From a virus: a DNA stretch of 64,000 nucleotides. Positions within the stretch are counted from its first letter, which is position 1. Each line of letters begins with the position of its first letter. The translations under genes and the position numbers were made by a program. The stretch spans positions 1-64,000 of the IMG/VR virus record IMGVR_UViG_3300037261_000012; one strand, written 5' to 3'. This document shows positions 2,309-62,022 of the stretch, one piece after another. Under the pieces are notes generated by a model, which was not told where the DNA came from, made no database searches, and was given only the letters and a program-made list of their open reading frames with translations.

Positions 2309-2375
2309 TCGGCACTTACCAGCAAGGTACACTGTTGCCTGAACACTGCAATCAATTGCAATCTGAGGAACGCAC

Positions 2376-4718
2376 ATGAAAATCTACGACTCTCTCAACC
2401 CAACATTTTCCGCAGCCGAAGCACTTGGTGTGGTCACAGTCTCCGCCAACGCCCAAGGTGCCCCTCTTGATCTGGCTCCTGCGACCAGCAATGCCACTCG
2501 TTTGCCGCTGGTTACAGTGCCCAAAAATCTGTATCAGCCTGACCAGAAAAGCTATACCATCACCCCAACAGGAGTACATACCGGGGACACAGTTACCATC
2601 AATGGGCGGGTATTCACGGCCACCGGTAGCACGGCTGACGTGGGCAAGATTGTATTCACTAATAATTTCTCAGTAGCAGATACCGTAACAATAAATGGTG
2701 TGGTTTTCACAGCTATAGATGGTGCCTATGCAACAGGGAAGATTGTCTTCACCGGCAACTTCAGTTTGTGGGATACCATTACCTTGAATGGAAAGGTCTT
2801 TACTGCCATTACTACTGCCGCACCCGCTGTTGGTAAATTGGTATTCACTGGAAATCTGCTTGCTGGAAACACCGTAACAGTAAATGGAAAGGTGTTTACG
2901 GCTGTGGGGATTGCGGCTCCCGCAGTAGGTAAGATTGTATTCACCGGGAACTTCCTGAATGGTGATACGGTTACCTTCAACGGTGTAACTTTTACTTGCC
3001 ATAAAGCAGCCCCATCAGTTGGGAGTATTGCCTTCACTGGGAATATTGCTCCTGGAGAAACAGTAACAGCCAATGGAATAGTATTTACCTGCATGGCATC
3101 AGGTGCAGCCGGTGATCAGTTCAATGTTGGAGCAAGTCTTTCCGTTACGTTGGATAACCTAGTAACTGCCTTGAATGCTCACGTTGGAGCAGCAGTTGAT
3201 TTCGCTACTTGGAGCAAAACTGGAGGTAATGCAGCGGTCACTGGAACGTCTGATACCAATGACGCAACCCAGAATGGTCGTACCTTCAGTTCTACTGCCT
3301 CACCAGCCCCAACTATCACGGCCTTTGCTAATGGTGTGACTGCTGCCAGTGGTGAACTTCAGTTTGACTGGGATACAACTTTATCTCTGTCTTTGGATGC
3401 CTTAGTCACCAAGCTACAGGCTTGCAGTGATGTTCTTATTTCATATGCGACATACACCAAAACAGATACCAATACAGCAGTAACTAGCACTTCTGACACA
3501 AATAACAGTGCTCAGAATGGGTTGGTATTTACTAGCACGCACGCTACTGTGGTGGTGACTGCCCCTGTTGGTGGAGTAAGTGCCCCGGCAGGTGAATTCC
3601 AGTTTGCGATTGACACCACACTTAGTCTGTCGATAGATAATCTGAATACAGCCTTGAATGGGTGTACAGATGTTGCTGTATCTTATGCAACATACAGCAA
3701 GACCGATGGCAATACAGCAGTTACATCCACTTCAGATACAAATAACAAAGTTCATAACGGGGTGGCTTACCCAGGTGGAACAATTGTTCTTGCTAGTAAC
3801 CACAGCACTGTAGTCATTACCCAGCCTTCTGGGGGAACGGCAGCAGCTACAGGTGAATTTGAATTCACTATTGCTGGAAGCCTGTCCCTGTCTTTGGACG
3901 CCCTGGTGATTGTGTGTAATGCTTGTACTGATCCCTTGATTACCTATGCTACATATGACAAGTCTGATACCAATACTTCTCTTAGGAGCATAGCTGATAC
4001 ACATGGTACGGCTTACAATACTCCAACTGTTGTGTTTAGCTCTACACACTCAACTGTGGTGGTGACTCAACCAGTTGGTGGAGTAGATGATACAGATGGA
4101 AGTGCTGCTCAATTTGATGTTAAGGCAACCCTGGCTCTGACTTTGGCGGCTTTAGCAGCAAAATTGACTGCCAGCGTTGTTGCAGCAGTGGCCATCGCTG
4201 ATTACACGGTTACTGATGGAGATACTGCCATAACAGTCACCTTAAATCGCTTGCGCGGGTCTGCCGGTGATGCAATTGTATTAGCAAGTAATCATAGTAC
4301 AGTGGTTGTGACTCAGCCAACTGGAGGTTCAGATACCACTGCATACAACACCACAACCTTCTGCACAGGAGCACCATCTGATGCTGAGACTGCTGCAAAC
4401 CTGAATTCAGCAATAAATACTTGGAAAGCCAATGCAGGGGCGGCATTCCAGCTACATGATGGTAAAGTAGCCATGACAGCCACCAATGTAGCTTCTTCAG
4501 GCGCTGCTGTTACTACTTTTGATCTTCAAGTTAGTACTGATGGGGTTAATTACATCCAGCACCCTGAAGGAAGTAACCCAACTCTATCCTTGAATCAAAC
4601 ACCTGGTGAAACAAAGACCACACCTATGTATACAGCCTACCCATTCGTTCGGGCTAAGTGCCTGACTAAAACAGGAACCAACGCAGAAGCACAAGCGTAT
4701 ATTGCAACAGCCATATAA
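2376..4718 (+). CDS. Virion-type structural protein with six nested repeat domains
   Basis: T/A/G/V-rich; six GKIVFTGN..GDTVT.NG.VFT segments followed by six QF....LSLSLD.L...LNA.....ATY segments; C-terminal LQVSTDGVNY...PFVR. Confidence 0.75.
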   Translation: MKIYDSLNPTFSAAEALGVVTVSANAQGAPLDLAPATSNATRLPLVTVPKNLYQPDQKSYTITPTGVHTGDTVTINGRVFTATGSTADVGKIVFTNNFSVADTVTINGVVFTAIDGAYATGKIVFTGNFSLWDTITLNGKVFTAITTAAPAVGKLVFTGNLLAGNTVTVNGKVFTAVGIAAPAVGKIVFTGNFLNGDTVTFNGVTFTCHKAAPSVGSIAFTGNIAPGETVTANGIVFTCMASGAAGDQFNVGASLSVTLDNLVTALNAHVGAAVDFATWSKTGGNAAVTGTSDTNDATQNGRTFSSTASPAPTITAFANGVTAASGELQFDWDTTLSLSLDALVTKLQACSDVLISYATYTKTDTNTAVTSTSDTNNSAQNGLVFTSTHATVVVTAPVGGVSAPAGEFQFAIDTTLSLSIDNLNTALNGCTDVAVSYATYSKTDGNTAVTSTSDTNNKVHNGVAYPGGTIVLASNHSTVVITQPSGGTAAATGEFEFTIAGSLSLSLDALVIVCNACTDPLITYATYDKSDTNTSLRSIADTHGTAYNTPTVVFSSTHSTVVVTQPVGGVDDTDGSAAQFDVKATLALTLAALAAKLTASVVAAVAIADYTVTDGDTAITVTLNRLRGSAGDAIVLASNHSTVVVTQPTGGSDTTAYNTTTFCTGAPSDAETAANLNSAINTWKANAGAAFQLHDGKVAMTATNVASSGAAVTTFDLQVSTDGVNYIQHPEGSNPTLSLNQTPGETKTTPMYTAYPFVRAKCLTKTGTNAEAQAYIATAI

Positions 4719-5488: not shown

Positions 5489-5556
5489 AAAGGGCTTGAC
5501 AGTCCGGCAAATTGTGTTATACTTTGCAATCAAGTGCAGTAAGCAATGGAGTGGTT

Positions 5557-6732
5557 ATGTTCGAATTGTCTTACAAATCCCATATTCCCATTATCGGCGT
5601 GCAAACAGATGACGTTGTGAATGTTGAGGCTGTGTTGCAAACAATCACGGGAATGAAGACCCAACCTTTCCCGAAGGTGAAGATGGGGCAACTTGGGCCG
5701 TATCTATATTGGACTCAGGACATAGAGGTAGTCACTGCCGATAATTATAAGAATCTGGTGAAAACTGAGCATCAATTGGTGGTGATCAATTGCCATCATA
5801 ATTCACTGGTATTCGAAACAGGGCCATTGCTTACACCAAAATCAATGATCACGGCATATCTGGAAGACTTTGCCGAGGCTGAAAAGATACCCCACTTGCT
5901 GGAGGTTCTGAAAGGATTAAGCCTGAAGACTGCTAGTGAGATTGTGCAGCTAACCATGGCCAGTACTGGAGGAATCCTACCACAGGATGTGCGTAGAACC
6001 AGAACCAGATTGTCTGTTGGTGTTCGTGGATTACTGCCGTTGGATACGGAAATGGATTTCTACATCATGCCTCCGGTGTTGAAACAGTGGATTGACCTTA
6101 ACACCAAGTTCTTCCTGGATGACACTACACCATACCAGCTTCGCCCTAGAGGTCTGATGATGGCTGGTGAACGCGGCGTCGGCAAAACGATGGGTGCACG
6201 GGCAATAGCTTCAGCTTGGAATATCCCGTTGTACCGTTTGAATATTCCTACATCACTGGATAAGTACATAGGGGTATCCGAAGGGCGCATTGAGGACAGC
6301 CTGCTGCTGCTTGAGCGCGAAGCTCCATGCGTTGTTTTACTGGATGAGGTCGAAAAAATCTTCACCGGAAGTGATGAAAGTGGAGTAACTAAAAGAATAT
6401 TGAGCCAACTACTGTGGTGGTTGGCCGAGCACAGAAGCAAGGTTATTACGGTAATGACCACCAACGACCTGAAAAGCCTGCCCTCAGAGCTATACAGGGA
6501 AGGAAGGTTGGATAAGGTATTGCAGTTACCAATGCTTACCACGGCTGAATCAAAGGTCTTTGGTGTGGAAGTCTACAAGGGTGTTACTGGTTTTACCACC
6601 GTTGGCATGAAGGTTCAGAATTCCATAAGAAGTGCCGTGGAAGATGTTAATGCTCAGAATATGAGCCACGCTGAAGTATCAGGATTGGTGTATAACCTGA
6701 TCAAAAACCATCCATGGATGTTAGGAAAATAG
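5557..6732 (+). CDS. AAA+ ATPase (Ycf46-like)
   Basis: Walker A GERGVGKT, Walker B VLLDEVEK, TTN sensor, LPSELYREGRLD; start chosen at the ATG after the GGAG RBS. Confidence 0.88.
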   Translation: MFELSYKSHIPIIGVQTDDVVNVEAVLQTITGMKTQPFPKVKMGQLGPYLYWTQDIEVVTADNYKNLVKTEHQLVVINCHHNSLVFETGPLLTPKSMITAYLEDFAEAEKIPHLLEVLKGLSLKTASEIVQLTMASTGGILPQDVRRTRTRLSVGVRGLLPLDTEMDFYIMPPVLKQWIDLNTKFFLDDTTPYQLRPRGLMMAGERGVGKTMGARAIASAWNIPLYRLNIPTSLDKYIGVSEGRIEDSLLLLEREAPCVVLLDEVEKIFTGSDESGVTKRILSQLLWWLAEHRSKVITVMTTNDLKSLPSELYREGRLDKVLQLPMLTTAESKVFGVEVYKGVTGFTTVGMKVQNSIRSAVEDVNAQNMSHAEVSGLVYNLIKNHPWMLGK

Positions 6733-6814
6733 TTCAGAAAGTACTTGACAGACTGACTGAATGTGGTAAAATTGGTATGAATAACCCGATAAACAACGCA
6801 AAGGAGTTGCACGC

Positions 6815-7330
6815 ATGAAGCAGTTCAGAGGAACAGGTGACTTTTACACGGTAGTTGCGGAAGATGAAGGCATTGCACTTGGTTGTCGCGTAACTATCTC
6901 TAATATGGAGACCATTACTGTACGTTTTGCAGCAGCCATCCAGGCTATCAAGACAGCCCCAACAAAGGAACCTCAGCATTTTGGATGTAGGCACAAAACA
7001 GCCTTCATTGGTGATGATCATGAGCCACACTTTGGGTGGAACTTGGACAAGACGGACATCCCGGTGTTCGAAGACCCGGCTACCATAGCGGACTGGCAGG
7101 CCGCGCAGGCTACCAACAACATCACCACCACGGTCGTAGGATGGATCATCGAACAGGTCAAGCTTGGTGGATTCACCATTACGAACTCCACCAAGGAGAC
7201 TGTGCTGGATATGGTTACCAGGGCGTTCCCGGTGCTGAAGGTGAAATTCGTTAAGCCCAAGAACATCTTCAACGAGCTGAAGATCACCGACAAGGCTATC
7301 TCTGATGATACAGGGGCAGCAGAGGAATAA
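6815..7330 (+). CDS. Hypothetical protein
   Basis: Promoter and AAGGAG RBS upstream. Confidence 0.7.
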   Translation: MKQFRGTGDFYTVVAEDEGIALGCRVTISNMETITVRFAAAIQAIKTAPTKEPQHFGCRHKTAFIGDDHEPHFGWNLDKTDIPVFEDPATIADWQAAQATNNITTTVVGWIIEQVKLGGFTITNSTKETVLDMVTRAFPVLKVKFVKPKNIFNELKITDKAISDDTGAAEE

Positions 7331-7372
7331 TCTTACCGCAGTAAAACTGAAGTAACTTACAAGGAGATTGGA

Positions 7373-7975
7373 ATGCAAGCAACAGGGAATTTTCGTACTA
7401 CCAGCCGTGGCACTCCAGAAGTAATCGACGGACGTACCACCAACCAGTCCTACATGATCATCGCAGCCTTGGCAGCAGCAGCGTCATGGAATGCCGTGGT
7501 TGCTATGGACGCAAAACACAACGGCAACGCTCATAGCATCAAGATGAAGTTCTACCCAACCGCCGACTTCTTCCTCAATGAGGATATGATGAGAGAGCAA
7601 TTCGGTGCTCATGACTGGCGCAACCGTTACCCTGGGGATAGGGATTTCCCAGGCGCGGGTTACCAGCGTTTCTACCTGACCAAGGAGAACCTGGTGAAGT
7701 TCATGGAATGGATGTGGGATCAACCACAGTTTGTCGTCGCTCCGGTGAAGCTGGCGTTCGAGAAGCTCGGCTACACCCTACCCGGAAACCAGACCTTCGA
7801 CTTCGACAGCAAAGGCAGGCGCTTCAGCTTGGTCGCCGAGGATGACCCGCGCCAACACGCGCACTACAAGAAACTGGCCAGGGCGTTGAACAAGAACCCG
7901 AAACCAACATTGCCGCCGACTGCGACTGAAAAGCAAGGTCGTCACTTCAAGACAGCCGGGGAAATGGCCAGCTAA
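7373..7975 (+). CDS. Hypothetical protein
   Basis: AAGGAG RBS; biased codon usage. Confidence 0.7.
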   Translation: MQATGNFRTTSRGTPEVIDGRTTNQSYMIIAALAAAASWNAVVAMDAKHNGNAHSIKMKFYPTADFFLNEDMMREQFGAHDWRNRYPGDRDFPGAGYQRFYLTKENLVKFMEWMWDQPQFVVAPVKLAFEKLGYTLPGNQTFDFDSKGRRFSLVAEDDPRQHAHYKKLARALNKNPKPTLPPTATEKQGRHFKTAGEMAS

Positions 7976-8982
7976 TGCCATGGAAAAAGGCCGTTGCTGA
8001 TTGCACGGCCACTGGAATCAAGCGGGAGTACAAGCTGGTCACTGGAGATTGGAACAGTGCCAGCCTACTCTCGCAAATCATTTACTGGCGTTCTGATGGT
8101 TCAGACGGTACGCCAAGAGCAAAAGTTTGGAGACAGAACAGATTTTGGGTAGCAGACCCCATTAAAAAATGGACGGATTCCTGCATGATAACAGACGCCG
8201 AGTATAGACGGAGCGCAAAGTTATTAGTAGACCGTGGGCTGGTAGTAACAGCCGTATTCAAGTTTCGTGGCATTAACTGCGTTCATTTCTCCATAGAGGA
8301 TGAATCTCTTGCCAACGCACTTGCTGCTGCAATTTCTGGTAATCCTCCTAAAGTGGTTAATTCACATTTTACAAAATGCGATATTAACAGTTCTCAAAAT
8401 GCGAATACAGCAGTTTCTTATACTACTGATTCTGCTTTAGATTCTGCTTTAGATTCTAAAACAGCGATTGACATCGCGGAGACAAGTGTGGATGCCCAAG
8501 AGACCTTAAAAGCTCATAAGGAAAAGCAAACCCAAGTACTACCAGGGGCTAGCTTGGCATTCCTATGGAAGAAGCGTTATACCACGATTTATGGGGGTTT
8601 CATAAAAGGGTTTACACAGAAAGAAATGGGGCAGTTCAAGAAGCTGCGGGAAGCCCTTGGGGAAAACGGTGCGCCAGTTATTGAGTATGTACTGGCAAAC
8701 TGGGGAAAATTCGCTTATAAGGTGGCAGGGGACAAAGGTATACACAATACACCTGAAAAGCCTGTTGTGGGCTTTGTCCTAGCCCATTATGATGTGGCAC
8801 TGCAATTGATTGCAGAACCTAATGTGCCCCACCCAACATACAAGCCAAAACAAGTTGTGTACACTGTGGCACCTGCTACCGAATCCCCGGTTAAAGGTTT
8901 AGAAGAGCCTGCGTTCTCCACGGAACAAATTAAATTGGTGGAGCATTTCAAGGCAAAAGCCGACGCCGCAAAGGAGTTGTGA
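7975..8982 (+). CDS. Replication initiator-like protein (N-terminal winged HTH)
   Basis: LLSQIIYW...W...LLVDRGLV wHTH pattern; internal iteron-like repeats; upstream of DnaC-like and DnaB genes. Confidence 0.6.
   Translation: MPWKKAVADCTATGIKREYKLVTGDWNSASLLSQIIYWRSDGSDGTPRAKVWRQNRFWVADPIKKWTDSCMITDAEYRRSAKLLVDRGLVVTAVFKFRGINCVHFSIEDESLANALAAAISGNPPKVVNSHFTKCDINSSQNANTAVSYTTDSALDSALDSKTAIDIAETSVDAQETLKAHKEKQTQVLPGASLAFLWKKRYTTIYGGFIKGFTQKEMGQFKKLREALGENGAPVIEYVLANWGKFAYKVAGDKGIHNTPEKPVVGFVLAHYDVALQLIAEPNVPHPTYKPKQVVYTVAPATESPVKGLEEPAFSTEQIKLVEHFKAKADAAKEL
8365..8458. repeat. Putative replication origin repeats inside the initiator gene
   Basis: CAAAATGCGA x2 and GATTCTGCTTTA x2.5 (8428-8458) in an AT-rich stretch. 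Confidence 0.4.
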
Positions 8983-11652: not shown

Positions 11653-11818
11653 CGAGCTATGGGTACAGAAAGACGGAACCTCCATACCAGTGGGGTTGAT
11701 GGAGGTACACCACCTCAAGAATGCCCTTCGTAAAATGATAAAATGGCGCAATCAATTGCAGAAGAACATGGAAGCATTGAAAGAGGAAGAAACAGGCCAA
11801 CCTGGAGACCATAATTGA
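11612..11818 (+). CDS. Hypothetical protein
   Basis: WVQKDG..IPV..M...HLKNA, a common small phage protein pattern. Confidence 0.55.
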   Translation: MPQKMNFLKVEQTDELWVQKDGTSIPVGLMEVHHLKNALRKMIKWRNQLQKNMEALKEEETGQPGDHN

Positions 11819-12780
11819 ATGCTGAACAAGGCATCCTTTTTTTGAAGGCTATTGGAGCCAAGAATCTCCAGGTAAGGGAGCAGTGGATAACAGCATCGTG
11901 TCCTTTGGCATTTCTAACCCATAAAAATAATAAAGATAGCAACCCATCCTTTGGTTTGTCCTTAGGCACCAAGAGTTTCTATAATTGTTTTGCCTGTGGT
12001 AGAGGTAGCGCCGTCCAGTTATTGCAATCAATTGCAGCTAATGGTGAAGGTGTGGATATTCCCCTTGCTACTGCGTTGCTTGAGCAAGAGGCATCAACAA
12101 TAGCTTTTCTACCTGGGTATTCTGAGTTTGCGAATAACGAAACTACAGAGTTCTCTGCCTGGCCTGAATACTGGATAGACAGTTTTTTGTTGGCAGGGAT
12201 GAATACAGAAGCAGCTTTATACCTGGGTAAGAGAGATGATATAGGAGTGCCTGTGTATCAGTGGGAGAAGTTTGAACTTCATTATGATACTGCCAGGCAC
12301 ATGATAGTTTGTCCTTTCAGGAACGTGTGGGGAGAGTTAGCAGGGGCCAGAGGTAGGTTTATAGGTAAGAAGGATAAGGATACCCCTAGTTGGCAAGTAC
12401 ATTTTGACTACGGGTGGAACAACATCCGTAATACAAGAATGGTATGGTACAACGAGCAAGCATTACAGTTGGATGGGTGGGTGGTAGTAGTTGAAGGGCA
12501 ATTTGACTGTATGAGAATAGATGAGAAATATAAAAAGGTGGTGGCCAATCTAACGGCCCTTCCAACACACCCAAAGCTTATGAAGTTGCTTCAGTCTGAT
12601 GGGGTAATACATATACCAGATAATGATATGACGGGTGAAAAGAGTGTAGTTGAGTACCAAGAATTCTGTAAAAGTCATAAACTTAGGTATAAGAAATTGA
12701 GTCTGCCTGATGGAATAAAGGATGCTTCAGAGTGTAATCCTGACTATATTTTCGACAGGATTATGGAGTTACACAGTTGA
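11815..12780 (+). CDS. DNA primase (Zn finger + TOPRIM)
   Basis: CP...H..DSNPSF...CFAC; VVVEGQFD; DND; KDASE. Confidence 0.9.
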   Translation: MNAEQGILFLKAIGAKNLQVREQWITASCPLAFLTHKNNKDSNPSFGLSLGTKSFYNCFACGRGSAVQLLQSIAANGEGVDIPLATALLEQEASTIAFLPGYSEFANNETTEFSAWPEYWIDSFLLAGMNTEAALYLGKRDDIGVPVYQWEKFELHYDTARHMIVCPFRNVWGELAGARGRFIGKKDKDTPSWQVHFDYGWNNIRNTRMVWYNEQALQLDGWVVVVEGQFDCMRIDEKYKKVVANLTALPTHPKLMKLLQSDGVIHIPDNDMTGEKSVVEYQEFCKSHKLRYKKLSLPDGIKDASECNPDYIFDRIMELHS

Positions 12781-50391: not shown

Positions 50392-50859
50392 TTGCGAACG
50401 GAGTGCCCGAAGTGTGCTAGTGAAAGTGCCCATTATATAAAGAGTGGGCCTGATTTGGTGCTTCGCTGTATGTGTGGGTATTACAAAGTAGTCTTCACTA
50501 TGTTGGGTACCATACAGACAGCTACTGTGGAGTCAGGTATAGATGTGAAGTTGCCGAAACCGAAGTCAAATCTACATAAGACTTTAATGGTGGTTTCAAT
50601 ACTGGATGAGCCTTCCAGTGCAGAGGCAACAGAAAGAATGCAGGATTTGGGAGTATATCGTAATGTGTCTGATGTGAGTTCCTACCTTACGATATTACGC
50701 TCAAAAGGATTGGTTGAAACCGTGGTAGTCAGACGCGGGATGCTTGGAGGCTCCACTTGGAGATTGACGGCAGCCTCATTGAAGTTGCTGAACATAGAGT
50801 GTGCAAGGAGTGAAAATGGCGCTTACACAAGACAAGCTGAGAGAGCTAACCAAGTATGA
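50392..50859 (+). CDS. Zn-ribbon + winged-helix DNA-binding protein
   Basis: CPKC...CMCG; SDVSSYLTILRSKGLV. Confidence 0.7.
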   Translation: MRTECPKCASESAHYIKSGPDLVLRCMCGYYKVVFTMLGTIQTATVESGIDVKLPKPKSNLHKTLMVVSILDEPSSAEATERMQDLGVYRNVSDVSSYLTILRSKGLVETVVVRRGMLGGSTWRLTAASLKLLNIECARSENGAYTRQAERANQV

Positions 50860-50876
50860 CCTAGTAGGGGTTTATC

Positions 50877-51380: not shown

Positions 51381-51636
51381 CATAGGAGTTACGAGAGGCA
51401 GTAGGATTAGAGTTGGCCAGTCCATGGTCAAGGTAGAGGAGATCGTTCAGGATGTGGCGGTCACTCTATCAGTGGATGGCGGCAAGAAATTCATGATCAC
51501 GGACTCCGAGCGCACGCAGATTATCCCTGAGGTGTTCGTCCAGCTTGGACTGAATCACCGCAGTAGTGGAACAAACAGTAGTCGCCTTGCGTTTGAAGCC
51601 CCCTTTTCTATAAAAATAAACAGAATAAGACAATAA
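51370..51636 (+). CDS. CsrA-like protein
   Basis: LSIGVTRGSRIRVG...RLAFEAPFSIKINR resembles the CsrA strands; TTG start after GGAG. Confidence 0.5.
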   Translation: MALSIGVTRGSRIRVGQSMVKVEEIVQDVAVTLSVDGGKKFMITDSERTQIIPEVFVQLGLNHRSSGTNSSRLAFEAPFSIKINRIRQ

Positions 51637-51769
51637 TGGACGCACGTTTCTACAGTTTGGAGTTCTGCGTTATCCTGGCTTGTATCCTTCCTGACGACCC
51701 GTTAATTGTGGTAGGGACAGGTGAAGAACTTGGAATTATCATGGATAACATCGCGCAGGATGACAACCT

Positions 51770-52063
51770 ATGAACATCGGGCCAAGAGTCCTGGAGGTGA
51801 TGCAGCACTATGGCATCAGCAAGGACGAGCTTGAGCAGATGGTGCAGAGAGCAGCTATTACCAGTCAGGAAGGTGGCAACAGGAAATTCCATACCTGGAT
51901 ATTCAACGTCCATGATGGTGCTGTGGTAAGCATGAGACCAGTTGAAAAGACCGTGGTAGGAAAGGACAAAGGTAATGGAGTCCAGCACGAAGACTGCGAT
52001 AAATGTGATGGATTCGGGTGTAAAGATTGCGGGTGGTGGGGACACATAATTAGGTACATTTAG
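51770..52063 (+). CDS. Hypothetical protein with C-terminal CxxCxGxG
   Basis: CDKCDGFGCKDCGWWG. Confidence 0.6.
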   Translation: MNIGPRVLEVMQHYGISKDELEQMVQRAAITSQEGGNRKFHTWIFNVHDGAVVSMRPVEKTVVGKDKGNGVQHEDCDKCDGFGCKDCGWWGHIIRYI

Positions 52064-52170
52064 GGCTTGACAGATCACCAGACTTGTGGGAAAATCACCC
52101 TAGATGACCAATGGAGTGTGTGTAAGTAACCGTGCAATCAATTGCAGTAATTACCAAGGAGTGGTATAAC

Positions 52171-52326
52171 GTGAGCTATAAGAGCACGCAGGACAAAGAG
52201 AAACTGGAATACCCATGGACTGCCCGCCAGAAGCGTGACAAGATCGGGCGTGGAGCTAAGAAGCGTGATAAAAAGATGCAGAAAGTAAAGATTAAGAAGG
52301 GCCAGGCTAAGACCAAGCCCAAGTAA
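52171..52326 (+). CDS. Small Lys-rich protein
   Basis: AAGGAG RBS after promoter 52067. Confidence 0.45.
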   Translation: MSYKSTQDKEKLEYPWTARQKRDKIGRGAKKRDKKMQKVKIKKGQAKTKPK

Positions 52327-52379
52327 AGAACTTGCAAAACGCCACGCGAAAAGGGTGGCAAAGAAAGCAAAGTAATTAT

Positions 52380-52456
52380 AGCGGGATAGCGCAGCATGGT
52401 AGAGCGCCAGGCTCATAACCTGGAGGTCGATGGTTCGAATCCATCTCCCGCTACCA
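52380..52456 (+). tRNA. tRNA-Met(CAT), initiator-like acceptor stem
   Basis: AGCGGGA/TCCCGCT stem, CTCATAA loop, GGTTCGAAT, ACCA. Confidence 0.92.
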
Positions 52457-52463
52457 GATTTAT

Positions 52464-52541
52464 AGTAAGATGGCAGAGTGGCCAAATGCAACGGACTGCA
52501 AATCCGTAAAGTCGTCGGTTCGAATCCGACTCTTACTTCCA
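52464..52541 (+). tRNA. tRNA-Cys(GCA)
   Basis: AGTAAGA/TCTTACT, CTGCAAA loop, U73, CCA. Confidence 0.92.
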
Positions 52542-52577
52542 AGATATTGTTGTAAGCCTTCTTATTTCGTCGTTCGA

Positions 52578-52920
52578 AGGCTGGAGTTGCTGAGATAGGT
52601 GTGCAAGAAGGCGGTTTGACTCCGCCCAGGTCCACCAGATGTGCATTGATTGGCTGAAGGGTTACCCAACAAGTCCAAAGGGAGATTAGTAAGCCTGTGT
52701 ACACAGGACGAACATCCTAGAGGTCAGGTAAGCATGGCAAGGTCAATGTACATCTGATGGGCCTGTCCCGATTTCGATTGTGCATCGACGGCAGTGAGGA
52801 CAACACGACAAGGGCGTATCCCGATCACCAATACCCGCCAACGATAGCGAGTATTTTCCGGCACTGCGTCTCGCGGCGTAAGACGGACGGGGTTCCCAGA
52901 ACCTTGTAACCAAAGATGGG
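52578..52920 (+). ncRNA. ssrA: Circularly permuted (two-piece) tmRNA
   Basis: T-arm plus CAGGTCC-A-CCA ends at 52637; the GGGCCTG 5' strand starts at 52759 (G3:U70); P2 GGTGTGCAA/TTGTGCATC; tag ANDSEYFPALRLAA* at 52837-52881; outer ends approximate. Confidence 0.9.
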
Positions 52921-52940
52921 TGGTGATGCCTCGAAAGAGG

Positions 52941-53050
52941 ACATCATCAGAAGTACAAATATAGGCTCACACCGGTAATGCGGGATTCAAAGCCCACCAC
53001 TGGTGCCACCCTGAAGCCTTTAGTAAGGTTGCTTTGTATTTCTGATGATG
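52941..53050 (+). ncRNA. Rod-like structured RNA (about 110 nt) between tmRNA and tRNA-Ser
   Basis: 18-bp closing stem CATCATCAGAAGTACAAA/TTTGTATTTCTGATGATG plus inner stems AGGCT/AGCCT and CACCGGT/ACTGGTG. Confidence 0.5.
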
Positions 53051-53141
53051 GAAAGTTGACCGAGTGGTAAGGTAGCGGTTTGCTAAACCGTAGTCGGCAC
53101 ATAATATGGCCGCACACGTTCGATCCGTGTACTTTCCGCCA
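53050..53141 (+). tRNA. tRNA-Ser(GCT)
   Basis: GGAAAGT/ACTTTCC, TTGCTAA loop, long variable arm, G73, CCA. Confidence 0.92.
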
Positions 53142-53146
53142 AGTAT

Positions 53147-53252
53147 TATGTTGGTAGGTAGTAGATGATATGGGTGGTAGTGCCAAGTTGCCCTTACGAT
53201 AAGCTACTGGTAGTCCAGCAAACCCGGTGCCTATGTGGGTGCCGGGAACATA
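53147..53252 (+). ncRNA. Multibranch structured RNA candidate
   Basis: TATGTT/AACATA closes hairpins including CCCGGTGCCT-ATGT-GGGTGCCGGG. Confidence 0.35.
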
Positions 53253-53318
53253 AGATAAGGAAAGTGTAGCTCAATTTTTAATGGAGTGAATCAATATTCT
53301 AAATTTGGAAAGAAATAT

Positions 53319-53403
53319 GGAGGATAGCGTCAGAGGGGACAAACAGACTTGAAATCTGTCGCCATCCGAAAGGTTGAGAGTTCGACTCTTTTATCCTCCA
53401 CCA
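53319..53403 (+). tRNA. tRNA-Ser(TGA) with 8/4-type acceptor/T stems
   Basis: GGAGGATA/TATCCTCC 8-bp stem, AGAG/CTTT T-stem, CTTGAAA loop, long variable arm, ACCA. Confidence 0.8.
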
Positions 53404-53411
53404 TGAACGAT

Positions 53412-53487
53412 GGTGACTGCAATGTGCTGGAGCGCAGGTTGGGCTGTGAACCCGACAGTTTGGGTTCAATTCCCAACAGCCACCCCA
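53412..53487 (+). tRNA. tRNA-His(GTG)
   Basis: G-1:C73, CTGTGAA loop, TTCAATT T-loop, CCA; atypical D-arm. Confidence 0.82.
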
Positions 53488-53494
53488 GGAACAC

Positions 53495-53569
53495 GGCTCT
53501 GTAGCTGAGACATGATTAGCGCGACTTTGAAAAGGTCGAGAGATTGGACGGTACCAATCGGAGCCACCA
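53495..53569 (+). tRNA. tRNA-Phe(GAA), aberrant T-loop
   Basis: GGCTCTG/CGGAGCC, TTGAAAA loop, 6-nt T-loop ACGGTA, ACCA. Confidence 0.78.
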
Positions 53570-53577
53570 AGTATTAA

Positions 53578-53648
53578 GCGGGTGTCATTGTGGAATGTAA
53601 TGGCCTTCCAAGCCAGGAAAGTAGGTTCGACACCTATCACCCGCTCCA
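53578..53648 (+). tRNA. tRNA-Gly(TCC), reduced D-arm
   Basis: GCGGGTG/CACCCGC, CTTCCAA loop, U73, CCA. Confidence 0.82.
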
Positions 53649-53667
53649 GTATTAGCAGTAGAATTAC

Positions 53668-53741
53668 GGGTTGGTAGCTCAATGGTAGAGCATCGGTCTC
53701 CAAAACCGAGGACTGAGGATCGTAACCTTACCGGCCTGCCA
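53668..53741 (+). tRNA. tRNA-Trp(CCA)
   Basis: CTCCAAA loop, G73, CCA; T-loop ATCGTAA. Confidence 0.88.
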
Positions 53742-53748
53742 AGTATTA

Positions 53749-53823
53749 CTGGGTGTAGCGCAGCCTGGTCAGCGTTTCCGGCCTGGAACCGGAAGGTCGT
53801 TGGTTCGAATCCAACCACCCAGA
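53749..53823 (+). tRNA. tRNA-Pro(TGG) with C33 and A37, no encoded CCA
   Basis: CTGGGTG/CACCCAG, loop CCTGGAA, GGTTCGAAT. Confidence 0.85.
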
Positions 53824-53945
53824 CACGACCGAAATCAGACTCTCAATGGAGAAGTCGATGAAGAAGCAATTGCAGTTAGGCATGAGAAGTATTTGCGTAA
53901 TGGTAACTAAACAGCATTTTGTGATGTTCAACGCACGGAGGAAGT

Positions 53946-54356
53946 ATGAAAAGTACAGCAGTAGCAGAGTGGTCTTTCCCTACTGAGGTGAACCACCCTA
54001 AGAAAATAGCCGCAGCAATGGAGGCTGCGGTCAAGCATAGCCAAAAAATAGAGAGGAAGTATCTGGAGGAAGGGTGGGCAAAAGCTCATGGTCTTCAGTA
54101 TGTCCATCTGCGTGGATATGATATTTTTGGTAAACTGTGCTCAAATGGTGGATTGACCATAGCTTATGTAAAGCCCAAGCACGATTACCAGAATGTGGTA
54201 CTTATTTCCACCGGCTTGTGCAATCCAATTGACTCGTTCTACAAGGAAGATGGGCGTTTCTATGCCGCCAGGGAATTTGCATCTGGACATTACATAAAGG
54301 TGCGTGTTCCTGGTGGTTACGGGGTGGCAGAATATCTGATGCTCATGTTCGATTGA
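53946..54356 (+). CDS. Hypothetical phage protein
   Basis: GGAGG RBS; NGGLTIA...C...DSF....GR. Confidence 0.65.
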   Translation: MKSTAVAEWSFPTEVNHPKKIAAAMEAAVKHSQKIERKYLEEGWAKAHGLQYVHLRGYDIFGKLCSNGGLTIAYVKPKHDYQNVVLISTGLCNPIDSFYKEDGRFYAAREFASGHYIKVRVPGGYGVAEYLMLMFD

Positions 54357-54447
54357 TGGTCGAACAGTCGGTGAATCTGATTCATTTACTGGAACTCCAT
54401 TTGGAACCTGCCGATTATAAGCGTTTCCCCGGCCGGTCGCGGCACCA

Positions 54448-54524
54448 AGGCAGTGTAGCTCAGTTGGTAGAGCAAGAGCCTTCTAAGCTCTGTGTCGAAG
54501 GTTCGATTCCTTCACTGGCTACCA
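54448..54524 (+). tRNA. tRNA-Arg(TCT), irregular acceptor stem
   Basis: AGAGC-CTTCTAA-GCTCT, canonical D and T loops, ACCA; pairs best as 8/4 with a G.G mismatch. Confidence 0.82.
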
Positions 54525-54532
54525 GATTAAAT

Positions 54533-54607
54533 GGGCCGGTAACTCACTGGTGAGAGTTTCGTCCTCATAAGGCGAGAGGGGTGGATCGTAACCACCACGG
54601 CCCACCA
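54533..54607 (+). tRNA. tRNA-Ile2/Met(CAT)
   Basis: GGGCCG/CGGCCC stem (Ile2-like), CTCATAA loop, ACCA. Confidence 0.82.
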
Positions 54608-55010
54608 AGGTAAATAGTGAAGAAAGTGCTTGACAGATCGGGTGAATTGTGGGAAACTCCTCTATGAAGTGCAATCAATTGCAGTGCTAACCAAAGGAGT
54701 GGAAGATGAAGATTGTGTTTGGTAATATCCCGCCGAGAACAAAACTTCTAAGATTAACTGAGGTTGGTGAAGTTGTTATGCGTACAGGGGTTGGATGCAC
54801 ATAATCTAAATCTTTTAGTATTGGATGTCAAGGAGACATCATAATGCGGGCAGTAGCATGTGATGTTACACGAAAAGCCATTGAAAGAACTCGCAGTGAA
54901 CCATGGCGAGATACCTACGTTGTTAATCTTAAGACCGGCAGCGCCTGGTTTGCTGATGGCAACGAACAAGTCATTCCGATGAAAGCAGTCCTGGGCGTGG
55001 AGAAAGACCA

Positions 55011-55511
55011 GTGAAAGTAGGACTAGGTACACTAAAAATGCCTCTTTGGTTTGGGCGCTATGCTGTCGTTACTGGTGGCCCGTACTACGACTGCCCGCGC
55101 TATATGTTTGGCGTGAAGATGGCGGAAGAAATACGTGCGCCCAATCAAGTGAGTGTGCCTACTAGGGACTTTGGTGTGCCGAAGACCTCTGCCCTTGACA
55201 ATGGAGTAAAGTTGACCGTGCAAGCGGTATTGTCGGGGCAGCAGGTCTACGTTGGCTGCATGGGGGGTAAAGGAAGAACTGGATTGTTCTTAGCTGTGTT
55301 GGCCAAAGCTTTTGGGGTAAAGAACCCAGTTGAATATGTCAGAAAGCATTACTATGAACACGCGGTGGAAACCAAAGAACAGTATGCTTTCGTCACCCAC
55401 TATCAAGTGCCACGCCAGGTGCTTCTGAGTATCAGCCTGAGCAAGTGCCTGTCGTTCATGCGCCCAAAGAACATAACTTCCACTATCAATCACAATGATG
55501 ATTGGAAATAG
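55011..55511 (+). CDS. CX5R protein tyrosine/dual-specificity phosphatase
   Basis: RDFGVP, YVGCMGGKGRTG, AVETKEQ. Confidence 0.88.
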   Translation: MKVGLGTLKMPLWFGRYAVVTGGPYYDCPRYMFGVKMAEEIRAPNQVSVPTRDFGVPKTSALDNGVKLTVQAVLSGQQVYVGCMGGKGRTGLFLAVLAKAFGVKNPVEYVRKHYYEHAVETKEQYAFVTHYQVPRQVLLSISLSKCLSFMRPKNITSTINHNDDWK

Positions 55512-55585
55512 TTGCGAAAGTGCTTGACAGACGGGCCTGATTGTGGGAAACTGTCTTATGGTTATTTCAATACAATGGAGTGTTA

Positions 55586-56623
55586 GTGAAATACCTTCCT
55601 AAGAATACTAGGGCGTACTTCCAGGCAGCACCGCAATATGCGTTGCATAACCTCGCTGAAGTGCCCTGTTCTACCTTAGCGTTAGCTACCAGGAAATACC
55701 GTGGTGACACTAAAACAAAACCATCACCATTGCCTGATTGTGAGGCTGTGAATTTCTATGCCCTCAATCATTGCGCTGCCTTGGTAAGGAAGATGTTCAC
55801 GATGAATGAGGTTCTCCCATCTTGGGCAGAAAACGTGATGACCAACTACCAGATAGAACTGGTAGAGCAAGCAGAGCGACTTACCCATTACATCATTTGT
55901 GTAATAGTGCGGGAGGCTCGTCATTGGCACTCACCATCAATTAGTCTTTCAAAAGCCGTGGCCACCAAATTTGGCCAGCCGGTGTTGGACTTCCTGAACT
56001 TGAATCGCTCATCTACTGAGACTGCGTCGGTCAATAATTATATGAACAATCCCCCTGATACCACGCTGATAAAGCTGGTGGGGGGGTTGGCCCACATTTA
56101 TGACTTTGGACAATGGAGTGGTGGGTATGGTGGTAAAGCATGGGGCATGATAGCCAAGACTCTACTTTCAGTGTTGGAGGGCAAAACAACTATAGAAATG
56201 ATGGTGGACACTGCCTACACCTTGGCGCACAACAATGGCCCGATGTTCAACAAAGGGATGTTGTACCAGAATTACAATGGTAAGTACTTTATCATGATAC
56301 TGGATGTTCAGCGTAGTGGCCAAATACCTGAATTGATGCTGGAGAAAGGTGAGGTTGGCTTCGAGTACAATCCTTCAGTGGTGAATGTGATCAAGGAAGT
56401 GAAAGCTGCTGTGCCTGGAGCATTTGGAACTTACGTTGACTGGTTCAAAGTCACAGCCCTTGGTGCCGTTGGACATTATGGCCCGCAGCAAGCTAATCAA
56501 CAGAAAAAGCATCCGAAGGAAGTTGAATTCCCCAAGTTCCTTGGCCAGAAAGCCAAGAACATCGGAGAATGGGATGTATTCCCTGGTCAGTCCGTGCAGG
56601 TCTTCGAAAGGGTGAAAGCATGA
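55586..56623 (+). CDS. Conserved hypothetical phage protein
   Basis: Own promoter; FYALNH, REARH, GYGGKAW, DTAYTLAHNNGPMFNK. Confidence 0.75.
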   Translation: MKYLPKNTRAYFQAAPQYALHNLAEVPCSTLALATRKYRGDTKTKPSPLPDCEAVNFYALNHCAALVRKMFTMNEVLPSWAENVMTNYQIELVEQAERLTHYIICVIVREARHWHSPSISLSKAVATKFGQPVLDFLNLNRSSTETASVNNYMNNPPDTTLIKLVGGLAHIYDFGQWSGGYGGKAWGMIAKTLLSVLEGKTTIEMMVDTAYTLAHNNGPMFNKGMLYQNYNGKYFIMILDVQRSGQIPELMLEKGEVGFEYNPSVVNVIKEVKAAVPGAFGTYVDWFKVTALGAVGHYGPQQANQQKKHPKEVEFPKFLGQKAKNIGEWDVFPGQSVQVFERVKA

Positions 56624-56834
56624 ACACTCAATTTATTGGGTTAGGATCAGAGGCGGAGATGGTGAGTTTACGTGGTCTGCCAAAGATCAAGAGGATGTGT
56701 ACTTCCCATTTTCAGTTATTGGTAGTGACGAGTGTTTCGAGGAGGGGGTTAATGATGACCAACTTGAAGTGTTGGCCGGGCCTTTCAATGAAACTCAAAT
56801 TTTTGCAATGTTGCCTGAGGGTGGAATGTCATGA
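56620..56834 (+). pseudogene. Frameshifted paralogue of 33345-33530
   Basis: MNTQF continues in the -1 frame as YWVRIR...VIGSDECF...EVLAGPFNE; one T missing at about 56634. Confidence 0.6.
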
Positions 56835-57616
56835 GCAAGAAGCAGTATGAATTGAGTCAGGAAGACCAGTTCTTCCATGACATGTTTATGAAGGAAAAGG
56901 CCGATAAAGGACGACCAGACGACCTTAGCCCTACAAATTGGACTGCCCAGGATAAGAAATGCGCGCATTCACATCCGGCACTGAAGATAGTCGTTGGGGA
57001 CAAAACCTACGAAATATACGGTGGTGCCTGCGGAAGTCCGATACACAAATGCGACATCTATATAGGGCTGGACAGATACAGTATGGAGTACCATACCAAG
57101 CAGTACCCATGGCAGGACAAGGAAGTTACTACGGAAATAGACATACTATATCCTATTACTGATATGTCTCCGCCAAGTGATTCGGCGAATTTCAAGCTGA
57201 TGGTAGCCTGGATTTGCAATCAATTGCAGTCTGAAAAGAAAATCCACATCGGTTGTATAGGTGGGCATGGAAGAACTGGTACAGTGTTGGCGGCGGTGGT
57301 AGCCAATATGATGGGTGGAGAAGGAGCCATCCAGTATGTACGGAAGAACTACTGCGATCATGCAGTGGAGTCGGCTAGTCAAGTGAGTTTCCTGATGAAG
57401 CACTTCGGGTGCTCCAAGGCAGTTGGGTACAAAGAGCACGGTGGCCTTGGATTCGTGAAAGATTGGGGTTCGGCCATGAAGGGCAGCCAGTGGGTGTCCC
57501 AACCTCATCAAAAGGAAGGCCAAACCCAAATCTATAAAAGCAGCAAAGCAAAGACCAGTTTTTCTGGGGCCAAGAGGTCGTTCTCAAACGTAACCAGCCT
57601 GCGATCAATTTGGTAA
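56831..57616 (+). CDS. CX5R protein tyrosine/dual-specificity phosphatase
   Basis: PITDMSPP, HIGCIGGHGRTG, AVESASQ. Confidence 0.88.
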   Translation: MSKKQYELSQEDQFFHDMFMKEKADKGRPDDLSPTNWTAQDKKCAHSHPALKIVVGDKTYEIYGGACGSPIHKCDIYIGLDRYSMEYHTKQYPWQDKEVTTEIDILYPITDMSPPSDSANFKLMVAWICNQLQSEKKIHIGCIGGHGRTGTVLAAVVANMMGGEGAIQYVRKNYCDHAVESASQVSFLMKHFGCSKAVGYKEHGGLGFVKDWGSAMKGSQWVSQPHQKEGQTQIYKSSKAKTSFSGAKRSFSNVTSLRSIW

Positions 57617-57694
57617 AATAGATGCGAAAGTGCTTGACAGATCTCCGGAATTGCGGTAAATTGACTTATGAGTTCAAACGTCAATGGAGTGACT

Positions 57695-58540
57695 ATGCCA
57701 ATGAGTATCACCATGTTGGGTAAAGACGAATTCTTTCACAAAGTATTATCCCCAGAAGGTTTCATGATGTATGGGCATCTTCTGGCTGATGGAGTAAAGT
57801 TCACAACTGAACTCTACACAATCAAGGCCGAGAAGGGAGTAAAAGGCTGGCAGGTTAATCTGCCGGTAGTGGTTACTACCTTGTTAAAAACTACCGCTTC
57901 TGCTCAATCTGAGTTGGCTTGCAACATGGTCAACGAGTTTGTGAGCAAGCTGTACCAGGTGGTGTTGCCGGAAGTCACCAAGCCTCAAGAGCCTACTATT
58001 CATGAGGCCCCTATTAAGACAGCAGCAGAATTCTTTGAAAAAGCTGAAGATATTAAGAAAGAGGCTTCAGAAATAGAAGTGAGCTTGGGAGAGTTGCTGA
58101 AGAAAAAGCTGGCTGACGCTAAGACTGTGGCCCCAATACCTGATCCTGTGCCAGTGCCTCCAAAAGCCAAGATTCTTTCAGATGGGAAAATTAAAGCTGG
58201 AGTGATCCCTCTGTGTGATGCTGAAGTTGTAGGCCAGAAAGTGCGCGGCACTAGCAATGGGAGTGTGTACATCGCCGTGGCGGTTAATCCCCGTGTGAAG
58301 CTGGCCGCCAGAGTCAAAGGATCATCCATCAGCCTCCGTGTGGAATGTAAGGATGGAGTTACTGAAAAAGAAATGGATGCAATCAAGGGTCTGTTGCAGT
58401 GGCATGGGAACTATGGTTCTACTCACTTCGAAGCCGGTAACATACCGGTACAACGGGTGCTAGGTGCCGCAATCTACGGCATGGGTGTTCAATTTGATGA
58501 TGTGATCAAAGCAGGGGAGGCACTTCAGAGTGGAATTTAA
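57695..58540 (+). CDS. Hypothetical protein
   Basis: Promoter 57634 and GGAG RBS. Confidence 0.7.
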   Translation: MPMSITMLGKDEFFHKVLSPEGFMMYGHLLADGVKFTTELYTIKAEKGVKGWQVNLPVVVTTLLKTTASAQSELACNMVNEFVSKLYQVVLPEVTKPQEPTIHEAPIKTAAEFFEKAEDIKKEASEIEVSLGELLKKKLADAKTVAPIPDPVPVPPKAKILSDGKIKAGVIPLCDAEVVGQKVRGTSNGSVYIAVAVNPRVKLAARVKGSSISLRVECKDGVTEKEMDAIKGLLQWHGNYGSTHFEAGNIPVQRVLGAAIYGMGVQFDDVIKAGEALQSGI

Positions 58541-58929: not shown

Positions 58930-59136
58930 ATGAATTTCAATGTGTTTGTTGCTATAGCTGTGGTAGCTGATAGTAAAGAGGCCGCAGAGAATATTGTTGC
59001 TTGTATGCTTTCCAAAGAAATTGGCACTGTGATTATAGGTCATACTACTGAAGACATAGAGGAGTTCGATTCAGTGCAATCAATTGCAGTAAACCAACGA
59101 CCATGGCAGGATGCAGTTCGTAGAGGGGAGTACTAA
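58930..59136 (+). CDS. Hypothetical protein
   Basis: ORF within the operon. Confidence 0.5.
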   Translation: MNFNVFVAIAVVADSKEAAENIVACMLSKEIGTVIIGHTTEDIEEFDSVQSIAVNQRPWQDAVRRGEY

Positions 59137-61944: not shown

Positions 61945-62022
61945 TTGCAATCAATTGCAGTCATAATTTGGCTAGGAGAATAATTTCTGATACACTGTGA
62001 GGAATACCACAGGAGAAACAGT

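Follow-up and report, generated by a model that had tools for sequence, protein, structure and literature searches.

The systems that most resemble the one described here place a short DNA site repeatedly along a genome or replicon. The stoperators of L5 gp71, in Cluster A phages, are dozens of repressor sites that lie in transcribed regions and bring about silencing in lysogeny; they are asymmetric, 13-17 bp long and strictly oriented to transcription, and they differ between subclusters through immunity. ParB-parS and Noc-NBS use a 14-16-bp palindrome that is conserved more deeply than the proteins; parS sites are few and clustered near the origin, and Noc sites are scattered over the chromosome. 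On the plasmid RK2 there are roughly a dozen OB sites. The reach of KorB from its site to a promoter extends to 1.5 kb (PMC11790492). Among published cases the closest is a 17-bp dyad repeat, TGTTCGGNNNCCGAACA, of the Cluster O mycobacteriophages, which has more than 30 copies per genome, about one third of them in coding sequence; in the view of its authors it is bound by a dimeric regulator, and its function is unknown (PMC4351075). Here we describe an evenly spaced lattice of a palindromic motif, with the 12-bp core GCAATCAATTGC, in the phage genome IMGVR_UViG_3300037261_000012. The window that we analyzed is the first 64 kb (64,000 nucleotides) of this 94,883-bp IMG/VR record, and figures given as genome-wide refer to the whole record. 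The initial annotation of this DNA had called the lattice a candidate undescribed system, and we found no description of the motif, or of an evenly spaced lattice in these phages, in the searchable literature; a search with the 12-mer returned only unrelated primer and gene sequences. Our preferred explanation, to which we give a probability of roughly 45%, is that the lattice is a set of docking sites read by a phage DNA-binding protein, with the phrog_17202 protein as the likeliest reader, forming a KorB-like operator network that tiles the genome.

There were 26 exact copies and five one-mismatch copies of GCAATCAATTGC in the window, compared with 0.44 expected from shuffled sequences, and a recount reproduced the counts, coordinates, gap sizes and use of reading frames given in the initial annotation. 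Over the whole genome GCAATCAATTGC was counted 37 times (exact) and 46 times (one mismatch). The 16-mer, allowing up to two mismatches, had 38 strand matches in the window, where 0.03 were expected. The extended consensus in the studied genome is A-C-T-GCAATCAATTGC-A-G-T, i.e. ACTGCAATCAATTGCAGT. The sites are more regularly spaced than random placement would give, as had been claimed. With the variants counted, the gaps in the window had a mean of 1987 bp, a maximum of 3276 bp (5526 to 8802) and a coefficient of variation (CV) of 0.45; for exact copies in the whole genome the CV was 0.58, against 0.97 for random placement (P ~1.5e-4). Ninety-four percent of the genome lies at most 1.5 kb from a site, compared with 77 ± 4% at random.

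The lattice recurs in all 12 related genomes that we analyzed in full. Judged by the large terminase subunit (TerL, 40-47% identity), the nearest cultured relatives are the Stenotrophomonas phages DLP5, DLP3 and Summit, Rhizobium phage RHph_Y1_11, Rhodobacter phage RcZahn and a group of ~80-kb Vibrio phages. Cultured phages yielded no match to 10 kb of the window in a megablast search, and a search for related loci with the TerL protein alone retrieved none. Scanning viral contigs with the 14-mer revealed several contigs of 42-99 kb with many copies, and four near-complete relatives have 24-50 exact copies per whole record. These relatives have a GC content of 55-62%, compared with 47% in the studied genome (47-62% across the family), and the TerL proteins of lattice-bearing relatives are 30-47% identical to that of the studied phage; the 12-mer is the same. 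DLP5 and DLP3 have ~26 exact copies each. Elsewhere the spelling differs: RcZahn has mixed TCAA and TTAA centers and a CTGCA arm, PG28 uses TGCAATTAAYTGCA, and the Rhizobium phage RHph_Y1_11 uses the variant TGCAACAAATTGCA. What is invariant in the family is TGCAA-N4-YTGCA, with a spacer of strictly 4 bp in every genome and 26-52 copies per genome, dispersed both near promoters and away from them. The centers are TCAA, TTGA, TTAA or, rarely, TCGA, and thus always contain a pyrimidine-purine step (CA/TG, TA, rarely CG).

Even spacing is also a property of the family. The CV of the gaps was 0.42-0.70 in 12 of 12 genomes. When the gaps were pooled, 3.9% were shorter than 0.2 of the mean (18% expected) and 0.8% were longer than three times the mean (5% expected). 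Regular spacing could have been a by-product of sites lying at gene starts, and this was ruled out by a null of random gene-start subsets, below which the observed CVs also fell. Approximately 30% of the in-gene sites in conserved genes are at orthologous positions, in genomes with ~45-55% protein identity. Site density differs several-fold among relatives with the same core genes. Two genomes that had seemed free of the lattice, G013 and G016, carry 16 and 28 one-mismatch copies of the motif, where at most ~0.4 were expected; an attempt to find the reader by comparing gene presence in lattice-free and lattice-bearing genomes failed for this reason. In G016 (117.5 kb), other words are over-represented besides the variant lattice, namely CGACTCGTTC (21 copies), CAAGCAAGCA (17 copies) and the palindrome GGACC-N4-GGTCC (~11 copies).

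The placement of the sites bears out the initial claim that selection acts on the nucleic acid and not on protein. In-gene copies in the studied genome use all three reading frames, giving LQSIA, AINC and CNQLQ peptides. The 12 genomes have 370 sites, 41% of them intergenic, compared with 12% expected, and the sites within genes show enrichment in the first and the last tenth of the gene. A frequent layout in the relatives is terminator, motif, promoter. In G001, G002, G006, G007 and PG28, 15-37% of the sites are 4-12 bp (mostly 8 bp) upstream of a TTGACA -35 element. The studied genome has a different arrangement: in four of the ten copies of its promoter family CTTGACAGA...TTGTGGGAAACT a site follows the -10 element by 13-49 bp, and no copy has one upstream. 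Because the site-promoter arrangement differs between genomes, the geometry relative to RNA polymerase is not fixed, which is easier to reconcile with docking or loading than with a classical activator site.

We found that orientation is not a property of the system. The initial annotation had noted that 25 of the 26 exact window copies have CA on the plus (coding) strand, the exception being the copy at 8802, and this is correct for the window; the ratio of CA to TG is 35:2 overall in the studied genome and 12:0 in its intergenic copies. Base composition was rejected as the source of this bias, since by our own arithmetic from the skews it predicts a ratio of only ~0.93, and coding constraint is ruled out by the intergenic 12:0. 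All 12 genomes are transcribed essentially one way, and the coding-strand CA:TG ratios in eight relatives are 23:17, 33:17, 13:11, 32:15, 19:8, 11:9, 9:1 and a reversed 7:19. A site at an orthologous position in the PPDK gene is flipped, encoding AIDC in DLP5 and G002 and AINC in G006. The CA orientation is therefore a lineage trait, strong in the studied genome and not required system-wide. Mixed and flipping orientation weakens the strand-specific mechanisms that had been listed initially (mRNA hairpin, lagging-strand priming and polar stoperators of the L5 type); of the mechanisms on that list, ParB/KorB-like docking or loading fits best.

The sites could act as hairpins in single-stranded nucleic acid, either in mRNA, with a role in antitermination, processing or the control of translation, or in single-stranded DNA, at the fork or on the non-template strand. 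Folding of the 18-nt consensus gives a stem of 7 bp and a loop of 4 nt (-7.4 to -8.4 kcal/mol, z -3.7 to -4.6), the strong orientation bias of the studied genome would suit such a structure, four of its sites are in 5' leaders just past promoters, and the outer flank pair changes complementarily between lineages (C..G, T..A, G..C, A..T). However, orientation is mixed or reversed in relatives transcribed in one direction, and the loop and arm sequences are invariant where structure alone would tolerate compensatory change. Within the studied genome the flanks show no site-by-site covariation, and T..G and G..G pairs are common. In five genomes, moreover, many sites follow immediately on a terminator and precede the -35 element, a stretch in which that promoter should yield little or no transcript. 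We consider a hairpin improbable. The pyrimidine-purine center together with invariant arms instead points to recognition of duplex DNA by a dimer.

The motif is not a word of host genomes, nor an element of the HIP1 or DNA uptake sequence type. The question of host frequency had been raised at the outset, and in a scan of one genome per species from 185,579 prokaryote species we detected single chance-level matches apart from two islands. In Comamonas testosteroni SWCO2 there are six sites in 4.7 kb at a contig end (scaffold10), and the rest of the 4.9-Mb genome has none. In Paraburkholderia elongata there are ten sites in 17.5 kb (contig C163, 47-65 kb), the cluster is repeated on a second contig, and the chromosome outside the cluster regions lacks the motif. 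In both islands the motif density exceeds that of the phage lattice and the sites are mostly in intergenic DNA. The Comamonas island encodes a P4-type integrase, a Rep_trans-like initiator, a small helix-turn-helix (HTH) protein and an open reading frame homologous to the phages' scaffold-like gene (67585-68670 in the studied genome). The Paraburkholderia island encodes a Rep_trans-like protein and, as cargo, an ADP-ribosylglycohydrolase, a DUF4145 protein, a 1441-aa NOV_C protein and Sel1-repeat proteins, a cargo that resembles the gene content of defense islands; similarity of this island to phage proteins was undetectable. Both integrated islands are likely to be phage satellites that copy the cis-acting sites of a helper. 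A separate cluster of four copies and one near-copy of a CG-centered word, TGCAATCGATTGCA, is present on P. elongata contig C113, in a region with no detectable similarity to phage proteins.

These observations bear on who reads the motif. A conserved host protein might be expected to, given that the motif is better conserved than any compared phage protein across hosts in the Alpha-, Beta- and Gammaproteobacteria. But host chromosomes are essentially without the motif, the 4.9-Mb Comamonas genome having it only in the island, and the lineage-specific respellings of the arms (GACAT, GAAAT, CCAAT) follow the phage and not the host, so that a host reader seems very improbable. The same 12-mer at GC contents of 47-62%, with distant TerL proteins, its presence in cultured phages of Stenotrophomonas, Rhodobacter and Vibrio, along with a variant in a Rhizobium phage, and its occurrence in bacteria only in islands suggest that it is read by the phage. 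To our knowledge the motif is unlike the consensus sites of IHF, sigma-54, FNR/CRP, LexA, Fur, DnaA, parS, matS, SlmA and Noc; supposed matches to the IHF, sigma-54 and FNR consensus fell through on direct comparison.

Alternatively, the lattice could be a mark of "self" that protects phage and satellite DNA by stopping or diverting a translocating nuclease or defense system, or by recruiting a modification enzyme, in the manner of Chi or a roadblock. Such a mark would need even coverage, as is seen; the likely satellites copy the lattice, mainly in intergenic DNA; the motif is absent from host chromosomes; and the phages carry modification-type genes, with DLP3 DNA being resistant to 15 restriction enzymes (PMC7326821). 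On the other hand, Chi is short, asymmetric and specific to host RecBCD or AddAB, and a Chi-like hotspot was rejected for a motif that is palindromic, the same across host classes and missing from host chromosomes outside the islands. We identified no cognate nuclease, and a self mark leaves unexplained both the fixed distance to the -35 element and the conserved site at the phrog_17202 gene that is described below. We regard this possibility as unlikely.

Similarly unlikely, in our estimation, is that the sites are cleaved or nicked by a phage nuclease, as interruptions like those of T5 or tf or as cuts for packaging or recombination-dependent replication. Palindromes are typical targets of dimeric nucleases, and genes for a DNA ligase, RuvC, a RecB/Cas4-like exonuclease and RecA are present in the phages. 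There are known cases, such as tf (PMC3517423), of phage genomes nicked at a consensus that recurs every few kb, and the denser sites of the satellites would suit a smaller capsid if cuts ended packaging. Against this, the PhageTerm result for R21Y, a Vibrio phage of the PG28 type, is ordinary headful (pac) packaging with redundant ends, not many fixed ends (PMC10671443). Known nick sites are strand-specific, whereas the lattice sites are symmetric and of mixed orientation. A nuclease would also leave the fixed position upstream of promoters unexplained, as well as the several-fold variation in density among relatives with the same core genes.

The candidate reader is a 258-aa protein of the family phrog_17202, encoded on the plus strand at 20594-21370. 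The initial annotation had named this protein among several for testing, and it emerged as the best candidate by its presence across the family, its upstream site and a fold match. Among predicted DNA-binding proteins, only this family is present in all 11 of the genomes that were full-length for these tests, including the most distant one, G003. In 10 of the 11 genomes the start of the phrog_17202 gene is preceded at 69-196 bp by a lattice site, which stands 7-9 bp ahead of a -35 element, and no other gene family has an upstream lattice site in more than 50% of them. The homologues in DLP5 (YP_009619961.1) and PG28 (QWS69833.1) are annotated as hypothetical. We also examined a wider set of 80 further viral loci that encode phrog_17202 homologues, 41 of which have a clear lattice. 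A site is just upstream of the gene in 25 of these 41 loci, compared with ~10 expected, and these include a locus with the TGACAT-type spelling TGACATTAATGTCA. Where a repeated word stood out in one of the 80 loci, it was almost always GCAAT-YR-ATTGC or a respelling of it; respelled lattices at homologue loci are GGCAAT..ATTGCC, CGCAAT..ATTGCG, GAAAT..ATTTC, CCAAT..ATTGG, TGACATTAATGTCA and GCAATCAGTTGC. Two other proteins that had been proposed, the MerR-HTH protein (14988) and the 50392 protein, were rejected as universal readers, as BLAST homologues are missing in RcZahn, RHph_Y1_11, PG28 and G003.

An AlphaFold model of the 20594-21370 protein has a mean confidence score (pLDDT) of 63, with residues 21-150 forming a core at 70-86 and residues 1-20 disordered. 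The model aligns to the DNA-binding domains of Caulobacter ParB on parS (Z 8.3) and Spo0J (Z 7.1), KorB on its operator (Z 6.8, root-mean-square deviation (rmsd) 3.8 over 106 residues; Z 6.5 for a second KorB entry) and, less closely, SopB, VirB and P1 ParB (Z 4.4-5.0). Pfam gave no match for any member of the family, a PDB sequence search with the 20594 protein gave nothing significant, and Foldseek with the model against PDB had no hit at E <= 0.001 and only weak ParB rows. Membership of the candidate in the KorB/ParB family is thus not established by these model comparisons. The residues R-K-A in a conserved helix are unchanged in all TGCAAT- and CGCAAT-type sequences shown and changed in three of five loci with an altered arm or outer base; this comparison is confounded by phylogeny, and we treat the covariation with lattice spelling as a lead only.

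A different phage protein might be the reader. The phage encodes three ParB_N proteins, all on the plus strand: one at 29829-30500, whose N-domain resembles the KorB domain that binds cytidine triphosphate (CTP), and paralogues at 30497-31075 and 31287-31748. The first of these, or the ~285-aa terminase-adjacent "ParB-like nuclease" of DLP5, RcZahn and PG28, could be a CTP-dependent clamp that is loaded at each site. Every complete genome encodes at least one ParB_N protein, and among known structures the CTP-binding N-domain of KorB (Z 11.6, rmsd 2.3 over 93 residues) and PadC (Z 11.2) match the model of the 29829 protein. Its N-domain is followed by a short segment of three helices that matches small HTH domains (Z 5-6), and Spo0J aligns across both parts (Z 6.8); a PDB sequence search with this protein gave nothing significant. 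In addition, DLP5 lysogenizes as a plasmid and has two ParB-domain proteins (PMC7326821). Several features speak against this alternative. The 29829 protein is just 24-25% identical to the terminase-adjacent type despite the identical motif, its putative HTH segment is modeled with low confidence (pLDDT 50-63), and the N-domain fold is also found in sulfiredoxin and kinases. The ParB_N domains are on separate proteins that are heterogeneous in size and architecture (285-aa terminase-adjacent proteins, 150-260-aa proteins and fusions to methyltransferases), and their genes are not marked by a conserved lattice site. We view a ParB_N reader as a less probable alternative, to be kept in mind. The ParB_N-methyltransferase fusions, in G002 (577 aa, L122:3596-5329, minus strand) and G003 (518 aa, L129:12395-13951, plus strand), occur in relatives that lack the 285-aa terminase-adjacent ParB-like protein.

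If the phrog_17202 protein is the reader of a docking-site network, the system would work as follows. The sites, TGCAA-N4-YTGCA, would be double-stranded operators or parS-like sites with a flexible pyrimidine-purine step at the center, and the phage-encoded reader would bind sites such as TGCAATCAATTGCA as a dimer. The 20594-21370 protein appears to control its own promoter through a lattice site. Selection would keep a site within ~1.5 kb of nearly every base, placing it in intergenic DNA or gene ends where possible and in codons elsewhere. By analogy to KorB-OB, the bound protein would act on the many promoters of the phage and the DNA between them, and it may cooperate with the separately encoded ParB_N proteins. 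The output might be genome-wide silencing or timing of transcription, or the organization or partition of a plasmid-like prophage; the plasmid lysogeny of DLP5 and the restriction resistance of DLP3 make prophage silencing or partition, or an interplay with DNA modification, plausible. The sites of the satellites would be handled in trans by the protein of the helper phage. What we observed directly is that the sites exist, are evenly spaced and conserved, and that one is associated with this gene; binding, dimerization, any sliding and the biological effect we infer.

Several observations weigh against this explanation. Alone among the full-length genomes, the studied one has no site immediately upstream of the candidate gene, and 16 of the 41 lattice-bearing loci in the wider set also lack one. 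The candidate's model is all-helical with modest mean pLDDT (63), so its Z values may reflect a common helical arrangement; Raf1 scored higher (Z 9.5). Reader and motif covary with overall phylogeny, so that their co-occurrence is weak evidence. The candidate had no ParB_N match, and because it lacks a ParB_N/CTP domain a sliding clamp of the KorB type in a single polypeptide is excluded. No ParA/IncC or KorA-like partner turned up among the proteins scanned, which were only part of the genes. A conserved repressor of the immunity type ought to differ from phage to phage, whereas the motif hardly varies. Finally, the 35:2 CA bias, 12:0 in intergenic copies, is not explained by a purely symmetric reader. 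A more specific version, which we hold to be doubtful, is that a split ParB system, made up of the HTH-only phrog_17202 protein and separate ParB_N proteins, reads an "identity lattice" in proteobacterial siphoviruses of 80-120 kb, and that satellites have copied it.

The lattice shares features with each of the known systems and differs from each. Like KorB-OB on the IncP-1 plasmid RK2, which acts with KorA, it consists of one short palindrome dispersed over a 60-100-kb replicon, with some copies directly upstream of -35 elements and others far from promoters; the ~1.5-kb reach of KorB matches the lattice spacing (PMC11790492), and the DNA-binding domain of the candidate reader may be of the ParB type, although the fold comparison does not establish this. 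In contrast to KorB-OB, there are 30-50 evenly spaced sites, many of them in codons, the candidate lacks a CTP-binding N-domain (ParB_N being on separate proteins), and the replicon is a phage whose motif is common to phages of different host classes. The Cluster O repeats likewise number more than 30 dyad-symmetric copies, partly intergenic and partly coding, but they have a 7-N3-7 architecture and another sequence, lie toward one genome end and not evenly, are confined to one cluster of one host genus, and have had no reader or satellite mimicry proposed. Cluster A stoperators also comprise dozens of sites along a phage genome. Unlike them, the lattice site is palindromic, its CA:TG ratio ranges from 35:2 to 7:19 among relatives, and the 12-mer stays the same at 30-47% TerL identity and in different host classes, without diversification by immunity group. 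With ParB-parS and Noc-NBS the lattice has in common a deeply conserved palindrome and perhaps, judging by the model, a candidate reader with a ParB-type HTH; it differs in that its sequence is unrelated to parS or NBS and no ParA was found among the proteins scanned. The nicks of T5, phiKMV and tf resemble it in having a specific sequence every few kb in a ligase-encoding phage (PMC3517423), and differ in that they are strand-specific and non-palindromic.

The individual sites in the window are as follows, exact copies being on the plus strand unless stated. In the first third there are exact copies at 2348-2359 (intergenic, with the gene at 2376 starting 16 bp further on), 11748-11759, 12024-12035 (within the primase gene), 13872-13883 (19 bp before the helicase gene start) and 16828-16839 (recA 3' end). 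The reversed exact copy, at 8802-8813 on the minus strand, is in the O-like/DnaD-like initiator gene, where it encodes LQLIA; its position and reversed orientation are kept in DLP5, G002 and G006, also as LQLIA. Further exact copies are at 22100-22111, 24132-24143 (terL 5' end), 27263-27274, 29014-29025, 29939-29950 (within the ParB_N gene 29829-30500), 31881-31892, 33724-33735, 35663-35674 (intergenic), 41885-41896, 45171-45182, 47848-47859 (intergenic, abutting the ATG at 47861), 50049-50060 (in the PPDK-like gene), 51159-51170, 57216-57227 (in the phosphatase-like gene, with an orthologous position in DLP5), 59076-59087 and 61947-61958 (intergenic, between the DNA polymerase and portal genes). 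Four exact copies follow the -10 element of a promoter: 38152-38163 (13 bp past that of promoter 38120-38150), 41231-41242 (26 bp, 41186-41216), 52134-52145 (49 bp, 52066-52096) and 54671-54682 (23 bp, 54629-54659). The variant GCAATCAAGTGC is at 5526-5537 (plus strand), where it fills an otherwise 6.5-kb gap, at 19422-19433 (minus strand) and at 43091-43102 (plus strand). The variant GCAATCAGTTGC is at 31225-31236 and 34514-34525, both on the minus strand, and was seen again in relatives.

There is a conserved promoter-like module, AATAGTT..GAAAGTGCTTGACAGA-N12-TTGTGGGAAACT, with a near-consensus -35 and an extended -10-like element. Its ten copies in the window are at 6727-6770, 32601-32644, 33547-33590, 38104-38147, 39322-39365, 41170-41213, 48282-48325, 52050-52093, 54613-54656 and 55507-55550, and it is probably the early promoter class of the phage.

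The sequencing runs listed as containing this DNA are peat metagenomes, with no RNA run among them. Nearly all genes of the studied genome are on the plus strand. The annotated replication and recombination genes encode an AAA ATPase, the O-like/DnaD-like initiator, DnaB, primase, helicase, RecA, an exonuclease, ThyX, RuvC and a MazG-like protein. Others encode TerL, a PAPS-reductase-like protein, an ADP-ribosyltransferase-domain protein, a methyltransferase, the three ParB_N proteins, an ATP-dependent ligase, a PPDK-like protein, two thymidylate-synthase-like proteins and a family-A DNA polymerase, after which come the structural genes for the portal, protease, scaffold-like protein and capsid protein. 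Between primase and helicase, 12865-13668 encodes a conserved 267-aa protein (phrog_17226) whose look-alikes in the ESM Atlas are gp32-type single-stranded DNA-binding proteins (score 0.88); it is probably the phage's own such protein, and a PDB sequence search with it gave nothing significant. The PAPS-reductase-like, ADP-ribosyltransferase-domain and methyltransferase genes are beside terL (26043-29196), and the PPDK-like, two thymidylate-synthase-like (phrog_17568) and phosphatase-like genes are at 48350-58540; these two groups suggest DNA hypermodification. A 127-bp direct terminal repeat (1-127 and 94757-94883) has a common assembler k-mer length and probably reflects a circular or permuted assembly, or an assembly overlap, and not true phage ends.

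Beyond the initial annotation, the new elements are that orientation is not a family property, the test of spacing against random gene starts, the respelled lattices, the satellite-like islands and a candidate reader with a conserved upstream site. In phages whose hosts include Stenotrophomonas, Vibrio, Rhodobacter and many uncultured bacteria, a 14-bp word is better conserved than any protein, and the lattice implies a function in cis for which phage genomics does not yet account. We can now name a concrete candidate for the reader and a conserved site that looks autoregulatory. The lattice is directly testable in cultured phages (DLP3, DLP5, RcZahn and PG28-like phages), one of which has prophages in plasmid form; DLP3, a close relative of that phage, has been put forward for use in therapy. 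In phage engineering, synonymous recoding could break the lattice. If the split-ParB version is true, it would add a new cis-acting layer of genome organization and a route of satellite piracy that are not described in print. If the KorB-like reading is true, long-range silencing by clamp and operator would extend from plasmids to phages, and it would explain how some satellites plug into their helpers.

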